From Promethearchaeota archaeon (GTDB lineage: Archaea > Asgardarchaeota > Lokiarchaeia > Sigyniarchaeales > SOKP01): a stretch of DNA of 64,000 nt. Below the pieces are notes generated by a model that was given only the letters and a program-made list of their open reading frames with translations, was not told where the DNA came from and did no database searches. Below are positions 36,984 to 44,500 of this stretch, in pieces. The position numbers and the translations under genes are program-made. Numbering within the stretch: position 1 is the first letter of the stretch; the number at the start of each line of letters is the position of its first letter. Where the stretch lies: contig JBHLLU010000002.1 in NCBI GenBank assembly GCA_048938895.1, positions 82,394 to 146,393 on the forward strand, in the 5' to 3' direction.

Positions 36984-37244
36984 ATGCAAGTATATCGATT
37001 AAAAATAAACAGAAACATCTGTATTGGTTGCAACGATTGTGTAGTTAGTTGTCCAATAAATTTTACACAGCTTAAGGAAAAAGGGTATCTAACCGAAGAA
37101 AATGCCGTAGTTTTGGTTAAAAATGGAATGGCCTATGATATATATGTCGAGAATAGAAAAAGTCCAAATTGTGATGGATGTGGTGTTTGTGTAAAATTTT
37201 GTCCTGTTTCTGCAATTGAGTTACATTTAACCGAAGAAAAATGA
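36984..37244 (+). CDS. fwdG: 2x[4Fe-4S] ferredoxin, FwdG-like
   Basis: CIGCNDCVVSCPIN and CDGCGVCVKFCP; first gene of the fwd operon. Confidence 0.75.
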   Translation: MQVYRLKINRNICIGCNDCVVSCPINFTQLKEKGYLTEENAVVLVKNGMAYDIYVENRKSPNCDGCGVCVKFCPVSAIELHLTEEK

Positions 37245-37245
37245 G

Positions 37246-37977
37246 GTGAATAATATTTCGTTTCCAAAAATATCAAGATCAATTAGTCAAGATGTTGAAC
37301 ATGTGAAAGTGCAATTTCTTACTGAGAGTTTAGAATTAATTTTAGACCGTACTAAATGTGTGGGATGCGGAACATGCGCTCGAGTTTGTCCTAAGGATGC
37401 TATTTCTCGTGGACCAGTTGGCTCATCTCGTCGTTTTCCAACTTTAGAGGATATTATACCAGAAGTATACGATCCTAAAAAATGTGTTTTTTGTGGTACG
37501 TGTGTGTATATGTGTCCTTTTTCGGCTCTAACTCTAAAAAAAGATGGGGAAGTTATAGAGCTTAATGATATTCCTATAGTTGCTCAAAAAGTTGTACCAA
37601 AGCTGGAATTTGAAGCAAAAAAGGTATCAAGTTATAATGGGACTGAAAGGATTGCTAAACAATATTGTAATGGGGAGGTTCGTATTGTTGATGAAGAATG
37701 TCCTGGTGGATGTCAAACTTGTTATGAAGTTTGCCCTTCATTTGCCATTTCACTTCCAGAAAAATCAGATAAGGGTTGGGAAACAGTTCCAAATGTTGTA
37801 GTAGATGAGGAAAAATGTATTTTTTGCGGATCCTGTGACAATGGATGTCCCACTGGTGCTGTAAAACTAAAAATTACCGAAGTCAAAACTTCTGGAGAAT
37901 CTAGTGAGATGTTTTGGGAACCTCTTTTAGAGAGGTTAAAAACTTTAAGATGGAGTGAAAAAAAGGAGGAGGATTAG
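37246..37977 (+). CDS. fwdF: Polyferredoxin, FwdF-like (four cluster motifs)
   Basis: CVGCGTC..CP, CVFCGTC..CP, CPGGCQTC..CP, CIFCGSC..CP. Confidence 0.8.
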   Translation: MNNISFPKISRSISQDVEHVKVQFLTESLELILDRTKCVGCGTCARVCPKDAISRGPVGSSRRFPTLEDIIPEVYDPKKCVFCGTCVYMCPFSALTLKKDGEVIELNDIPIVAQKVVPKLEFEAKKVSSYNGTERIAKQYCNGEVRIVDEECPGGCQTCYEVCPSFAISLPEKSDKGWETVPNVVVDEEKCIFCGSCDNGCPTGAVKLKITEVKTSGESSEMFWEPLLERLKTLRWSEKKEED

Positions 37978-37982
37978 ATAAC

Positions 37983-38378
37983 ATGATTATAAATAATCTA
38001 GTTCTAATTACTTGTCGAACAATCGATCAAGGTGTTGCTCTAGAGGGAGGAAAAGTCTCCAGGGAAGCTGTACGAGCAGCAGCAATTTGCGCTTTTGATA
38101 AGGAAGATTTCAAGAAATTGGATTGCATTGTAGGAACTCCTGTAAAAGTTATCACTGATTATGGAGAAGTCCTCGTATATTCAACAATCTCAGAGGAAGG
38201 ACCCCATCCAGGGATTATATTTATACCTATGGGACCGTGGGCAAATCAAGTTGTTAATCCAGATTCACAATCCTGCGGTACACCAACTTATAAAGGAATG
38301 AAAGCAACAGTAGAAGCAGTACCAAACGGTAAGGTTTTAGGTTCTGTAGAATTAATAAATACATTAAAGGAGGGTTAA
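37983..38378 (+). CDS. fwdD: Formylmethanofuran dehydrogenase subunit D
   Basis: LIT.RTIDQG, IFIPMGPWAN.VV.P..GTPTYKG. Confidence 0.92.
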   Translation: MIINNLVLITCRTIDQGVALEGGKVSREAVRAAAICAFDKEDFKKLDCIVGTPVKVITDYGEVLVYSTISEEGPHPGIIFIPMGPWANQVVNPDSQSCGTPTYKGMKATVEAVPNGKVLGSVELINTLKEG

Positions 38379-38379
38379 T

Positions 38380-39734
38380 ATGGTAGAAAAAATAAATACA
38401 ACCACAGATGTAGTCTGCCCGTTTAGATAGGATCTTATCGATTTATCGCGGTCTGTGGCACTCTCTGTGATGATTTAGAAGTTGATGTGGATATAAACGA
38501 AAATAAAGTAGTAGAAGTCAGAAATGGCTGTCAAATAGGCACAAAAAAATATTTTGCTTCAAACCCAAGTGATCATCGCTATGAAAAACCATTAATAAAA
38601 GATAATGGCTCTTTTAAGGAAGTTTCATGGGATGAAGCATTAGATAAAGCAGCTGATATTTTAATAAGTGCCAAAAGACCCTTGTTATATGGATTTTCAA
38701 GTACTGAATGTGATGCACAAGGGAAGGGAGTTGAGTTAGCAGAAATATTAGGGGCTGTTTTAGATAATACTGCTTCCGTGTGTCATGGGCCTTCTTTATT
38801 AGCAATTCAAGATGTTGGAGCACCCACATCTACATTAGGTGAATATAAAAATCGAGCTGATCTTGTAGTATTCTGGGGTTGCAATCCTGTTCACGCCCAT
38901 CCAAGACATTTGGGCAGATATAGTGAGTTTGTTAGAGGATATTTCAGAAAAGATGGAAGAAATGATAGATATATAATTGTAGTAGACCCAAGAAATACTC
39001 ATACTGCTCAAATAGCAGATTTATTTGTTCAAGTTAACCCAAGTGAAGATTATGAATTATTAAACGCTATTAGGGCTATCCTTAGAGGTACTGAATTAGA
39101 TGGGAAGGAAGTTTCTGGAGTACCAATGGAAGATGTTATTGCTTTAGTAAACAAATTGAAATCATGTAAATTTGGTGTGATTTTTTTTGGAATGGGTTTA
39201 ACTCAATCTCTCGCGCATCATAGAAATATTGATGCTGCAATTTGTTTGGTAAGAGAATTAAATGATTATACCAAATTTTTGCTAACCCCCATGAGAGGGC
39301 ATTATAATGTTGCTGGGGCAAACCAAGTTTTCTCATGGCAAACAGGTTATTCATATTCTATTGATTTTTCCAGAGGATATCCTCGGTATAATCCCGGAGA
39401 ATTTTCTTCTGTTGAAGTATTAATAAGAGATGAAGTTGATGCTTCTCTAATAGTAGCATCTGATCCTGCTAGTAATTTTCCTGCTGCATCAGTTAAAAAC
39501 ATGTTTAAACATCCTTTAATATCCATTGAACCTCATCACACCCCAACTTCTGTGAATGCTGATGTTATATTACCTCCTGCTATTGCTGGAATTGAATGTG
39601 AAGGGACAGCATATAGAATGGACAGTGTTCCACTCAGACTTCGAAAAGTCAAAGATGCTCCTGGTGAATGCTTAACTGATAAAGAGATATTAGAAAGGTT
39701 AATTGAAGTCGTAAAGCGTAAAAAGGGGGAATAA
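38380..39734 (+). CDS. fwdB: Formylmethanofuran dehydrogenase subunit B, split gene: join(38380..38424,38454..39734), 441 aa after splicing
   Basis: ATG 38380 lies 1 nt after the fwdD stop with a GGAGG SD; exon 1 MVEKINTTTDVVCPF; exon 2 CGTLCDDLEV...NGCQIG...VCHGPS...NRADLVVFWGCNPVHAHPRH...MRGHYNV. Confidence 0.9.
38425..38453 (+). other. Putative 29-nt bulge-helix-bulge (BHB) mRNA intron in fwdB
   Basis: AGATAGGATCTTATCGATTTATCGCGGTC. Central 4-bp helix CCGT(38419-22):GCGG(38448-51); 3-nt bulges TT^A (38423-25) and TC^T (38452-54); flanking helices on both sides; removal restores CPFCGTLC. Confidence 0.8.
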
Positions 39735-40589
39735 ATGATGTCAGAAGTGAAATTAAAATTAAAGAAAGAACCTAATTTTCCTTTAGAAGCAGACAACATT
39801 AGTCCTGATCAATTTGCAGGCAAAACTATTGCCGAAATAAAAAAATTAGTTGTATATCACGGAAACGAAGAAAAAACATTAGGAGATTATTTTGATGTCT
39901 CTGGAAAAGCTGGAGATCTAGCAGAAATGAAAATTGAGATAGAAGGAGACCTTTCTAACATTAAACGTATTGGCGAAAAGATGAGTGGAGGTGAAATAGT
40001 TATTAATGGTAATGTTGGTATGCATGTTGGGAACCATATGACTGGAGGAAAAATATTAGTTAATGGAAACGCTGATGATTGGGCAGGTGCTATGTTAAAT
40101 GGTGGTGAATTAGAGATAACTGGAGATGCTGGACATTATGTTGGTGCTGCTTATAGAGGTTTTTGGAAAGGAATGCAAAACGGAATAATTAAAGTTCATG
40201 GGAAAGTAGGTAATGAAGCTTTAACGTGGGTTACTGGTTCAAAGCCAGGAGAAAGATTTCCGACATTAATATGTGGAAGCGCTGGAGCTTTTTTAGGGAT
40301 TCATGGTCATGGTGGAACTATCATCGTTGATGGAGATTGTGATCGATGTGCAGGAGCGGACCAAGTCCGAGGTACTATTGTCGTAAAAGGTAAAGTCTCA
40401 CGAATTCTTCCTTCATATAAGAAGATAGGTGAAGTAAAGGAAATAGAATTGATGAGTGGGGAAAAAATAACAGGAAAATTTATTGAGTACAGTGGAGATC
40501 ACTCTGTGGAGAAAAATCACTCTAAGATAGATAAGAAAACCGGAGAAATCTCAAATAGCTCCAATGGGAGATTATTTGTAGCTTCCTAA
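39735..40589 (+). CDS. fwdC: Formylmethanofuran dehydrogenase subunit C
   Basis: PLEADNISPD, GXGXXM..G beta-helix repeats, YRGFWKGM. Confidence 0.92.
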   Translation: MMSEVKLKLKKEPNFPLEADNISPDQFAGKTIAEIKKLVVYHGNEEKTLGDYFDVSGKAGDLAEMKIEIEGDLSNIKRIGEKMSGGEIVINGNVGMHVGNHMTGGKILVNGNADDWAGAMLNGGELEITGDAGHYVGAAYRGFWKGMQNGIIKVHGKVGNEALTWVTGSKPGERFPTLICGSAGAFLGIHGHGGTIIVDGDCDRCAGADQVRGTIVVKGKVSRILPSYKKIGEVKEIELMSGEKITGKFIEYSGDHSVEKNHSKIDKKTGEISNSSNGRLFVAS

Positions 40590-41431: not shown

Positions 41432-44400
41432 ATTAAAAATTATAAATCTTTAGTCATTTATTTCTTTCTATGTACCATTGCAATATTGAATCCAATATCG
41501 TTAATATTATCTCTTCCTAGTCAGACATTTACTATATCCTCCACTCCCGATCTTGCTCAACCAAAACATTTAATAATTGGAGCTATGGGTATACCTGATG
41601 AGTGGGATCCCGCTGTTTCAGAGGGGTACAATATCTTGAGTGAATATTATTCAGTAAATTGCTTAGAGTCAGTGCTCTGGGTACCTGATAAATCTTTAGA
41701 TCTTAAACCAAATCTCGCAACCACTTGGGATGTCGAGTATTGGCCTGAAGAACTAAACACGATGGGATTTATTAATACAGGTGGAATAAAATCAATTACA
41801 TTTACACTACGAGAGAATGTCCAATTCCATGATGGCTCCGATTGGAACGCGACAGTATTTAAGTGGAACATCGATCGAATAAACATCATTAGTGGTAATT
41901 ATACAGGATTATGTCAAAATACAGAAGATAATAATGCTGAAGGAAATAACATGCATACTATTCTTGTGGAGGATTTTAAGCCATATTTCACTCCATCATG
42001 GAATATGTCTCAATATGACTCTCCAAATCTTGGAACTACTCCTCCTGCAACGGATCCGGGAGTTAATGATTATGCCTATTATAACTTAGGACCCAATGCC
42101 TCTTTAGTTGATTATGGTGATGCTGTCAATCCCCTCATCTTACCAAATAATACTTTTCGTAATCCAAATCCTTATGGTGGTTGGGATTATGCTGCGGGGG
42201 CAGCTATTCATTACGCGCCATATGATAGATATTCTATTATAAATTATGTAGAAATTCTTGAAAATCCACAATCTGGAGGGAAGGTTAAGGTTCATTTCAA
42301 CCATTGGACTACAAGCGGATTAGCAGGCGGTACAGGTTATCCAATGATTTCTTATAATGCTTATAGACAGGATTATACCACGAGAGGAATCTACGGGTAT
42401 GAAAATGGTGTTGATGATCCTCGAAATGCAGGACCTCTCACTCACATGATTGGGACAGGTCCTTATATATATGGGGAATATGATGAAACAGGATCACAGG
42501 GCTATATCATGAAAAACCAAAATTACTGGAACAGAACTGCTCTAGAAATCAACGATTGGTTTGATGCGGATATTGTTGATATAATTGTATTTCCAACGGG
42601 TCAATTGGGTACTGATGCTATGAATATAGCATTACTTACTCATGCTCTTGATTATGTAGTAGAAACTTCAATGTCAAATTTAGATTATGATGCAGTAACT
42701 GCAAATCCTAACATTAATTACCTAGAAAGAGGGGTCAGTGACTATATTTCAACTATAACTATGAATTGTATTAATGAAACCTGGTGGGCTTGGCCGTGGG
42801 CTGATATGTGGCGTCGAGGTTGTTATACTGGTGCAGGCGATAAACCTTCTGGTGGTATTCCACGCGCAATGCGAGAAGCTATGAGTTATGCCTTTAATTA
42901 CGACTTGTATATCAATACTGCTATGGATGGAAGGGTGGTAAGGTCAGGACTTCTAGGGATTGATAACATATATTATAACTCCTCTATACCTTTAGCTGAT
43001 TATAATGTTACTAAAGCACGTGAAATTTTACTTACTACTGAGACTGATCCAATTCTCTTTAACATTTCAACACCGGTCCCGCATGAACCAACCTATATTT
43101 ATAAAGCCGGTTACCCATTTGGAGATCATAATGCAATATCACTCAACCCAGATAACTACAACTTCAGTAAAATGTGTGCTGTTCGAGGTTTAACTGTAAG
43201 TAGCTCTGATCTAGATTGGCAAGCTGTTGCTGATGTAAACCCAATATATACCTTTAATTTTTATTGGGATTCTATTCATGAAGACGTAAAGAGTGTATTA
43301 CTAGTCTCTCTTAAAAATATTGGGTGTACACTAAAAGATACAACTGGAGTAACTAATAGAGTACCAACTATCATTTGGGATACCGTTCGTATTGGACATT
43401 TGACCACATTCGATGGAACTTATGGTATCTTTTCAAGTAATGGGTGGGTAATGGATGAATTTATGCCTCCCAATAGTCCAGAGTCAAATCTCTATTGGGC
43501 TACTGGAGATCCTGATAGTGGTAGATGGAGAACCCAGGGTGCTTCGGGGATTACAAGCTGGCATTATTGGGGAAATTTCGGATTCAATTTTGACGCCGAT
43601 GTTGATTACTGGTTAGAACGTATTACGTTGTCGGACCAAACAACAAAGATGAATTATATTAGTAAGATAGTTGAAAAAGAACAAACAGAGATATTTCCAA
43701 AGATTTACATTTCTCAAGGAATAAAAGGACTGGCACTTTGGAATGATTGGGAAATGAATCTGATCAGAGGAGATCATTTCTTTGCCAGTTTTCGCTATGT
43801 ACCACCCTCACCGCCGGGAGAAGTTGAATTAACTTCAGATGCTGGGACTCCCGATATTGATGGTAATTTTAATTTAGTTTGGAATGTTTCTATAGGAGCT
43901 GATAATTATACTATTTACAGATATAACCATGAAATAACAGAGATCAACGGTAGTTTAATTCCAATTGCTTATCAAACAGCAACCTCACCACACCCTATTT
44001 TTGGGTTAACTGATGGGGAGTATTACTTTATCGTTGTTGCCCATAATGAAAACGGAGACACATTATCAAATAATTTTCACATATCTGTTCAATTATCGCA
44101 AGATCCTCCGCAGTCATTTATCTTATCTTCTGATGCTGATTTTCCCGATAATGATGGCTTTTTTAATTTGAGTTGGACATATCCAGATGGAGCAGATAAT
44201 TATTCGTTATATATGGATGATCAACAAATCACAGTAATAGACAATGGTGTTACATTATTGCTCGATCAAATTGCTACATCTCCATTTCCCGTTACTGGAT
44301 TAACAAATGGTGAATATTATTTTGTAGTGGTGGCTCATAATAAATATGGTGATACAATGTCAAATAATGTGCATATTACCGTTAATATACCTGGAGGGGC

Positions 44401-44500
44401 AGAAGATATTCTTGGTTATAATACAATACTAATATCTTGTATCGCTATATTTACTGCGATATTTCTGTATAAAAAAAGGAGATTTAAGTTAGACTCCTAA
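41432..44500 (+). CDS. Large family-5 solute-binding protein with two FN3-like repeats and a C-terminal TM anchor; probable ATT start at 41432
   Basis: LRENVQFHDGSDWNA, MIGTGPY, MREAMSYAFN; frame open upstream of TTG 41486 to ATT 41432, giving a signal peptide, with GGGTGA SD; tail ILGY-hydrophobic-KKRR. Confidence 0.82.
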   Translation: MKNYKSLVIYFFLCTIAILNPISLILSLPSQTFTISSTPDLAQPKHLIIGAMGIPDEWDPAVSEGYNILSEYYSVNCLESVLWVPDKSLDLKPNLATTWDVEYWPEELNTMGFINTGGIKSITFTLRENVQFHDGSDWNATVFKWNIDRINIISGNYTGLCQNTEDNNAEGNNMHTILVEDFKPYFTPSWNMSQYDSPNLGTTPPATDPGVNDYAYYNLGPNASLVDYGDAVNPLILPNNTFRNPNPYGGWDYAAGAAIHYAPYDRYSIINYVEILENPQSGGKVKVHFNHWTTSGLAGGTGYPMISYNAYRQDYTTRGIYGYENGVDDPRNAGPLTHMIGTGPYIYGEYDETGSQGYIMKNQNYWNRTALEINDWFDADIVDIIVFPTGQLGTDAMNIALLTHALDYVVETSMSNLDYDAVTANPNINYLERGVSDYISTITMNCINETWWAWPWADMWRRGCYTGAGDKPSGGIPRAMREAMSYAFNYDLYINTAMDGRVVRSGLLGIDNIYYNSSIPLADYNVTKAREILLTTETDPILFNISTPVPHEPTYIYKAGYPFGDHNAISLNPDNYNFSKMCAVRGLTVSSSDLDWQAVADVNPIYTFNFYWDSIHEDVKSVLLVSLKNIGCTLKDTTGVTNRVPTIIWDTVRIGHLTTFDGTYGIFSSNGWVMDEFMPPNSPESNLYWATGDPDSGRWRTQGASGITSWHYWGNFGFNFDADVDYWLERITLSDQTTKMNYISKIVEKEQTEIFPKIYISQGIKGLALWNDWEMNLIRGDHFFASFRYVPPSPPGEVELTSDAGTPDIDGNFNLVWNVSIGADNYTIYRYNHEITEINGSLIPIAYQTATSPHPIFGLTDGEYYFIVVAHNENGDTLSNNFHISVQLSQDPPQSFILSSDADFPDNDGFFNLSWTYPDGADNYSLYMDDQQITVIDNGVTLLLDQIATSPFPVTGLTNGEYYFVVVAHNKYGDTMSNNVHITVNIPGGAEDILGYNTILISCIAIFTAIFLYKKRRFKLDS
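43811..44386 (+). repeat. Two tandem ~95-aa FN3/Ig-like repeats
   Basis: L.SDA..PD.DG.FNL.W....GADNY..Y ... GLT.GEYYF.VVAHN..GDT.SNN occurs twice. Confidence 0.85.

Follow-up and report, generated by a model that had tools for sequence, protein, structure and literature searches.

A predicted bulge-helix-bulge intron in the fwdB messenger RNA of an Asgard archaeon

Messenger RNA introns of archaea and the fwdB locus

The intron of crenarchaeal cbf5 is the classic bulge-helix-bulge (BHB) intron of a messenger RNA, a view taken by the original prediction for the locus described here and shared by two papers in the portions that were available (PMC7714728; PMC2738675). Beyond one case in a Haloferax 5' untranslated region (UTR), it was the only mRNA BHB intron reported by 2020, according to the available text of Schwarz et al. 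2020 (PMC7714728); its gain and loss within the Crenarchaeota (Desulfurococcales, Sulfolobales) are described in the accessible part of Yokobori 2009 (PMC2738675). A candidate of this kind lies in the fwdB gene of a Promethearchaeota archaeon, within the 64,000-nt stretch of contig JBHLLU010000002.1 that was analysed, hereafter the window; the 29 nt at positions 38425-38453 of the window are very probably a real BHB intron of the fwdB mRNA, removed by predicted splicing. Watanabe 2002 and Yoshinari 2006 reportedly also deal with the cbf5 pre-mRNA intron, as known through papers that cite them.

The fwdB insert resembles the cbf5 intron in being a short intron of a protein-coding open reading frame (ORF) with a BHB-like fold for the splicing endonuclease EndA, in belonging to a lineage of hetero-oligomeric EndA, in its lineage-specific presence and loss, and in misleading gene prediction. 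It differs in its hosts, which are fwdB and an AIR-synthase/ThiL-like gene, and in its lineage, which is Asgard rather than crenarchaeal; two alternative sites 8 nt apart occur here in one gene, and presence or absence varies between close relatives. Furthermore, cbf5 splicing has been shown experimentally, whereas that of fwdB is predicted from sequence. By analogy the fwdB intron would work like the cbf5 intron, being of the same mechanistic kind; it was rejected as a cbf5-type intron proper, as the host gene is FwdB (TIGR03129) and the lineage Promethearchaeota.

The Haloferax case is HVO_1309 of H. volcanii, which carries a BHB intron in the 5' UTR of its mRNA (available text of Schwarz et al. 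2020, PMC7714728). In that case, too, the substrate of EndA is an mRNA, and excision seems, from the same text, to matter for expression; however, that intron lies in an untranslated leader with the reading frame unbroken, and the host is euryarchaeal. Asgard tRNA genes are intron-rich according to the accessible part of PMC11291895, and the available portion of an October 2026 preprint on Asgard tRNA introns (bioRxiv 10.64898/2026.10.13.758758) has no occurrence of the term mRNA. Archaeal tRNA BHB introns share with the fwdB insert the motif, the predicted enzymes, the small size and a patchy distribution with repeated gains, and the tRNAs of the genome that contains the window also look intron-rich (13/25, aragorn); unlike in tRNA, the substrate here would be an mRNA, in which the exon strands of the helix are codon-adapted coding sequence.

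HAC1 and XBP1 provide a more distant comparison. Their mRNAs undergo cytoplasmic, non-spliceosomal splicing, in which Ire1 cuts twin stem-loops under stress control and a tRNA ligase rejoins the pieces. The predicted fwdB event would be similar in the non-spliceosomal removal of a short intron, cuts in defined loops, joining by a tRNA ligase and a change of frame, whereas Ire1, the twin stem-loops and stress control are features of HAC1/XBP1; the likeness is an analogy only, not membership. A role of the ligase RtcB in XBP1 splicing is described in the available part of PMC8718801. The literature searched, with subscription journals and supplements outside coverage, yielded neither a BHB intron of an Asgard mRNA nor one of fwdB, and no account later than 2020 of any further mRNA case; the Asgard lineage, two enzyme-encoding host genes, a pair of sites within a single gene, polymorphism among close relatives and codon adaptation would be the new elements of this putative intron.

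Reading frames and fold of the interruption

The fwdB frame that opens at ATG 38380 reads MVEKINTTTDVVCPFR and stops after 16 codons at TAG 38428, as given by translation. A second frame, read from 38454 as CGTLCDD..., stays open over 426 codons until a stop ending at 39734, and its own TAG lies at 38424-38426; it is this frame that the TIGR03129 FwdB profile matches with an E value of 6e-179, from profile position 7 onward (positions 7-420). Removal of the 29 nt at 38425-38453 fuses ...CPF to CGTLCDD... and yields 15 + 426 codons, a protein of 441 aa; no other deletion joins CPF to CGTLCDD, and, as its two ends carry different bases, the junction is fixed in position. The longest uninterrupted ORF runs from GTG 38487 to 39734 (415 aa) and is without the first three Cys. 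The layout of GGAGG, ATG, about 15 codons and CPF is the same in intron-free relatives; in the sequence upstream of GTG 38487 there is no GGAGG-like motif.

An unconstrained minimum-energy fold of 38400-38475 computed with ViennaRNA is a canonical helix-bulge-helix-bulge-helix (hBHBh'), in which the outer helix pairs 38412-18 with 38455-58 onward and is extended by 38403-08 with 38466-71. The defining feature of a BHB, two 3-nt bulges on opposite strands around a 4-bp helix, is found at this site, as is the strict form with outer (h) and inner (h') helices, which the second fwdB site of relatives lacks. EndA cuts two nt 3' of each central-helix strand, i.e., within the bulge; the rule agrees with the canonical tRNA 37/38 geometry and with one tRNA control (tRNA-Ser GGA). 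Twelve of the 13 aragorn intron calls served as tRNA controls (a 1,828-nt call was skipped), and a clean 37/38 intron was obtained for 1, the other 11 being uninformative. Applied to fwdB, the bulge cuts give a precise functional junction, CPF + CGTLCDD, as in 48 uninterrupted relatives. The register is rare, as 0.086% of 200,000 29-nt shuffles give the central helix and three inner pairs at the homology-fixed junction.

Every coordinate, frame and stop of the original prediction holds under translation and folding, including the 29-nt deletion and the 441-aa product; its pairing is reproduced exactly by the unconstrained fold, its cuts after 38424 and 38453 match both the frame-restoring deletion and the uninterrupted CPF-CGT[LF]CDD of the 48 relatives, and the ORF that it expected from gene callers, starting at GTG 38487 and lacking three cluster ligands, is indeed the longest plain ORF. 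A group I or group II self-splicing intron was rejected, since the insert has 29 nt against a ribozyme core of hundreds of nt and no Rfam match occurs in the window; the 64-kb window contains no Rfam family at gathering score and no tRNA. A blastn-short search of the motif against its own genome returned only itself, with no other match above 17 nt, and the intron is not a repeated element.

In the proposed mechanism, the canonical hBHBh' would be formed by the intron together with the codons that flank it, 9-15 in exon 1 and 16-21 in exon 2. EndA, probably an (alpha-beta)2 enzyme formed from two EndA-family genes, would cut after 38424 and after 38453; RtcB would then ligate the exons, and the intron would probably leave as a small circle. 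From the mature mRNA a FwdB of 441 aa would be made whose N-terminal Cys motif is complete, and from the unspliced mRNA a 16-residue peptide only.

Inserts in relatives, covariation and selection

A scan of one genome per species gave 80 fwdB loci, of which 77 were inspected at the junction, leaving out 3 that match only inside the gene. Forty-eight Promethearchaeota-type loci have no insert and read straight through CPF-CG; three (L001, L002, L037) have a 29-nt insert at the position seen in the window, and three others (L023, L033, L058) have an insert of 29-30 nt placed 8 nt further downstream, inside a Gly codon. These positions are called site 1 and site 2 below. The nearest records in the scan are Promethearchaeota/Lokiarchaeia-type metagenome-assembled genomes (MAGs), which places the source organism among the Asgard archaea, as had been proposed.

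A degenerate pattern was also run over 400 genomes of the phylum, and a fixed-gap version over metagenome contigs; both demand exact codons, and the counts are lower bounds. The pattern was matched in 24 of the 400 genomes. Eleven carry fwdB inserts and all belong to the window's family (135 genomes): four from two genera have the site-1 insert (G000, G193, G220, G241) and seven the site-2 insert (G190, G192, G227, G229, G253, G260, G271). The remaining 15 matches, in 13 genomes, are unrelated sequence. The metagenome contigs gave 73 pattern loci, comprising 7 of site-1 type (4 distinct), 7 of site-2 type (5 distinct) and 59 unrelated; three of the four distinct site-1 sequences are new and one equals L002. 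Overall, 7 distinct sequences are available at site 1 and 11 at site 2, which together with the 48 intron-free loci supply the presence/absence comparison among Asgard genomes that had been suggested as a check.

An assembly or sequencing artefact is so improbable as to be negligible. The assembly has 174 contigs and an estimated contamination of 7.5%, which would favour such an error, but the same insert is present in three other genome assemblies, in seven metagenome contigs and in contigs of another sample, which span 38400-38561 with the insert and 0 gaps; within the assemblies examined, the independent ones exclude the artefact that had been named as a refutation of the intron. Contigs of close relatives from two runs of other studies (X5 and X8, presumed to be DNA) are without the 29 nt, and the X8 contig shows 11 other letters over 468 nt besides this absence. 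The intron is thus polymorphic between close relatives, which differ by exactly the 29-nt unit.

A quick FwdB tree of 60 rows interleaves intron bearers with intron-free genes: L037 groups with the insert-free L036 and L039 at 99% support, L033 has the intron-free L029 as its sister (97% support), and both insertion sites are found inside one small clade. Such a patchy pattern means that the inserts were either gained several times or precisely lost several times. In many fwdB introns of both sites the apical loops are alike (UUAUC, AUAUC, ACAUC, AAUUC, AAAUC); this similarity may reflect common descent of the two sets.

It is considered unlikely that splicing is conditional, with a real EndA substrate whose partial or regulated removal gates FwdB synthesis post-transcriptionally. 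The intron at codon 15/16 sits right behind the ribosome-binding region and the unspliced product has 16 residues, which would suit such a gate; likewise, intron-free alleles in very close relatives imply that the intron is dispensable for function, and a second FwdB paralogue exists. However, the sequence shows no sensor or switch, and the structure of minimum energy is simply a canonical BHB.

Pairing has been kept at both sites while the bases changed, which bears out the compensatory changes sought in homologous inserts. Among the 7 distinct site-1 sequences, 87.9% of alignment cells are paired, compared with 31-50% when the partners are slid, and four pairs have changed on both sides; the central helix shows pairing throughout (100% of cells) with a single change, U:G to U:A, and compensatory changes occur in the intron hairpin at alignment columns 36:44 and 37:43. 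Among the 11 site-2 sequences the values are 91.3% and 30-50%, with seven pairs changed on both sides; six of the eight pairs of the inner helix change on both sides, and none of 500 shuffles attains the observed values. Over both fwdB sites and the AIR-synthase-like inserts described below, 88-96% of cells are paired as against 30-52% when slid. A joint covariance model of the two fwdB sites was dropped, as their central helices came out of register in the MAFFT alignment.

Read by eye, every site-2 insert gives CPFCGT[LF]CDD under the same cut rule; in L096 the conserved Thr is obtained only with the register of this rule, and a one-base shift turns it into Ala. The site-2 motif is a relaxed HBh'-like form; such motifs reportedly need a broad-specificity EndA of the (alpha-beta)2 or epsilon2 type, as stated in the available part of PMC5829648.

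The probability is minute that the ribosome deals with the interruption by translational recoding, either bypassing the 29 nt or shifting frame. The bypass of phage T4 gene 60 combines a hairpin in the gap, a stop near the break, and matching take-off and landing codons. The fwdB insert likewise has a stop codon soon after the break and a hairpin in the gap, but the codons differ: the last codon ahead of the gap is UUU, while GUC stands just ahead of the codon at which reading resumes, and at site 2 the corresponding codons are GGA and one of GUA, GAA or UAG. Nor does a bypass predict a 4-bp helix and two 3-nt bulges kept by covariation. A -1 frameshift would put 9 extra residues into the invariant CPFCG motif, and the in-frame 30-nt inserts with internal stops are beyond rescue by frameshifting.

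The coding sequence on either side of the BHB intron points in the same direction as its fold. The Pro codon that supplies the CCGU strand is CCG in all 7 distinct site-1 bearers and in 1 of 48 intron-free genes; at site 2, Cys-Gly is encoded as TGC GGA in 11/11 bearers, supplying the GCGG strand, while the intron-free genes have TGC for Cys16 in 5/48 and GGA for Gly17 in 20/48. Judged by these codons, the exons of bearers are adapted to the helix of the predicted splicing motif. Among the window (WIN), L001 and L002, the 45 nt of exon 1 show 0-1 differences, against a synonymous divergence (dS) of 0.6-0.9 in exon 2, which is what structural constraint on the coding sequence predicts; this near-invariance could reflect such constraint or a recent co-conversion together with the intron. 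At the same dS, the ratio of nonsynonymous to synonymous divergence (dN/dS) of exon 2 is 0.030-0.034 among these three bearers and 0.03-0.07 in intron-free genes. In the window, and in each of the 8 further bearer loci that extend to the stop, exon 2 remains open over its whole length; two more bearers are cut off at the locus edge. On these values exon 2 is under strong purifying selection and the gene appears alive.

These data also bear on whether the gene is simply disrupted by an insertion in the DNA, leaving a truncated FwdB made from GTG 38487 or a pseudogene backed by a paralogue, which is highly improbable. The 415-aa ORF from GTG 38487 does exist, as does a second, uninterrupted FwdB-family gene (C102:12089-13363; L142 1486-2790), a 434-aa ORF scoring 341 bits against a cut-off of 327.8. 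Against disruption stand the dN/dS of 0.03, the intact exon 2 of every bearer locus reaching its stop, and the coding-like, almost invariant exon 1 and first 11 codons of exon 2; GTG 38487 is not preceded by GGAGG, the insert is fixed at 29-30 nt with compensatory changes, the exon codons are adapted to the helix, and the same architecture occurs in the unrelated AIR-synthase/ThiL-like gene.

Genome-wide scans, splicing machinery and implications

The original prediction of a BHB intron removed by EndA and RtcB is supported, and everything computable agrees with it. Several observations weigh against it. The fold energy is ordinary (-19.9 kcal/mol, z -1.17), with 26 of 200 shuffles folding equally well. 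The BHB motif begins only 23 nt after the start codon, where splicing may compete with translation. Covariation was assessed on few sequences (7, 11 and 8), which are related to one another. Site 2 is not canonical: where the outer helix would adjoin the 3' bulge there are three U-U oppositions, the fold of lowest energy favours a 6-bp helix that absorbs two bulge bases, and 2 of 11 sequences carry a central-helix mismatch. The uninterrupted paralogue at C102 means that the interrupted copy need not be essential. A strict scan of the genome (4+4+3 pairs, 3-nt bulges, intron of 12-110 nt) gave about 37,000 matches, and those that join ORFs show no enrichment, with 490 real cases and 449-487 in wrong-bulge controls; BHB-like shapes that join ORFs are as frequent in controls, and therefore the shape alone proves little. 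A relaxed HBh'-type scan gave 8 real matches and 5, 3 and 1 in controls, one of the eight being an ordinary ferredoxin motif. Lastly, cleavage, ligation, circularisation and any regulation are all inferred; among the listed sequencing runs that contain this stretch, none is recorded as RNA.

Removal of cases with a Shine-Dalgarno motif and start codon left 349 real matches and 302-365 in controls, again without enrichment, and a hairpin-based scan for mini-introns was discarded as useless (601 AT-rich matches). When the motif was required in the local minimum-energy fold, 2 of the 490 real cases remained, with 1, 0, 3 and 1 in controls; with at least two G:C pairs also required in the central helix, the figures are 2/490 and 0/476, 0/487, 0/452 and 0/449 in wrong-bulge controls. 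In the genome-wide scan that had been suggested, loose versions match their controls, and the fold and G:C filters leave fwdB and one further gene.

This second candidate is an AIR-synthase/ThiL-like gene on contig C101 (locus L110), outside the window. A canonical 30-nt BHB insert at 1036-1065 of the locus (motif 1030-1068, central helix ACGU at 1030-33) divides a 160-codon frame from a 305-codon frame, and the first residues of the latter match the middle of the AIR-synthase N-domain, with PF00586 entered from position 43 and ThiL from position 69. Homologues run straight through GFHVTRA in 22 of 30 loci, while 8 of 30 have an insert of 29-30 nt at the same spot; the minimum-energy fold is the canonical hBHBh' in 7 of these 8, and 95.7% of cells are paired as opposed to 32-52% when slid, with three pairs changed on both sides. 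An uninterrupted 463-aa homologue has exactly the reading predicted for the spliced product, and the ThiL model runs over the junction. A pattern search located the insert in 27 of the 135 genomes of the family, which represent 6 of its 13 genera; the controls gave 0 matches. The fwdB insert is thus no lone case; the original prediction had missed this wider occurrence, both the second fwdB site in relatives and the second intron-bearing gene of the same genome.

The genome (4.65 Mb in 174 contigs, with an estimated completeness of 98.7% and contamination of 7.5%) encodes two EndA-family ORFs matching PF01974, of 202 aa (L081 1165-1773) and 200 aa (L082 1438-2040, minus strand), with scores of 101.5 and 68.1 bits, as well as one RtcB (L083, 566.5 bits). 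The endonuclease and ligase genes needed for a BHB intron are thus present, in agreement with the tRNA-splicing machinery foreseen for the lineage. The first EndA-family ORF keeps Tyr/His/Lys-like motifs and the second is without the His, by our own reading of the sequences and taking Tyr/His/Lys to be the catalytic motif of EndA; a catalytic and a structural subunit would fit this pair. Asgard EndA is described as a broad-specificity (alpha-beta)2 type with an L1 loop in the accessible text of PMC5829648.

Aragorn found only 25 tRNA genes in this genome of 98.7% completeness, 13 of them with introns at odd positions. The count suggests tRNA genes so heavily interrupted that they escape standard tools.

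Coordinates within the window are collected in Table 1. The fwd operon lies on the + strand in the order of two ferredoxin-domain genes, fwdD, fwdB and fwdC; the two ferredoxin-domain genes are probably its electron-transfer subunits. Further along the window, at 41486-44500, is an ORF of 1004 aa whose start is signal-like; it has repeated domains and ends in a hydrophobic tail.

Table 1. Positions of the fwdB exons, the predicted intron and its fold, and neighbouring genes in the window.
Feature	Coordinates	Strand	Basis or remark
Shine-Dalgarno-like GGAGG	38369..38373	+	6 nt upstream of fwdB ATG
fwdB exon 1, 15 codons MVEKINTTTDVVCPF, with first Cys of the N-terminal Fe-S motif	38380..38424	+	translation
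Predicted 29-nt BHB intron	38425..38453	+	ends are the BHB cut sites; no insert in 48 related fwdB genes
Premature TAG, ending translation of unspliced mRNA after 16 codons	38428..38430	+	translation
fwdB exon 2, 426 codons + stop, CGTLCDD...	38454..39734	+	TIGR03129, E 6e-179
ORF expected from gene callers, GTG start, 415 aa, first three Cys missing	38487..39734	+	ORF list
Whole hBHBh' fold; outer exon-exon helix 38403-08, 38410, 38412-18 with 38455-58, 38460-71	38403..38471	+	minimum-energy fold
Central 4-bp helix, 5' strand CCGU (Pro codon CCG + U of Phe)	38419..38422	+	minimum-energy fold
Central helix, 3' strand GCGG, in intron	38448..38451	+	minimum-energy fold; 100% paired in 7 sequences
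5' bulge UUA, with the cut predicted after 38424	38423..38425	+	minimum-energy fold; EndA cut rule
3' bulge UCU, predicted cut after 38453	38452..38454	+	minimum-energy fold
Intron hairpin, 38426-30 with 38443-47 and 38432-34 with 38440-42, loop UUAUC	38426..38447	+	minimum-energy fold
Two 4Fe-4S ferredoxin-domain genes, upstream in operon	36984-37244, 37246-37977	+	Pfam Fer4 families
fwdD, same operon, directly upstream of fwdB	37983..38378 (stop TAA 38376-38378)	+	NF042908, E 1e-30; PF01568
fwdC, directly downstream of fwdB	39735..40589	+	TIGR03122, E 1e-73

A broader proposal is that BHB mini-introns of 29-30 nt are mobile in coding genes of the family, repeatedly inserted and precisely lost at two fwdB sites and one in the AIR-synthase-like gene, and that their removal by EndA and RtcB gates enzyme synthesis, here of an enzyme of C1 metabolism, as an Asgard counterpart of HAC1/XBP1; this is regarded as doubtful. 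At the level of annotation, gene callers will give a truncated FwdB without three cluster ligands and a split AIR-synthase-like gene, and metabolic reconstructions from Asgard MAGs may therefore miscount such genes. The comparative evidence for intron gain or loss between close relatives is new, and the family would offer a natural system for the spread of tRNA-type introns into mRNAs and for the coexistence of splicing and translation without a nucleus.

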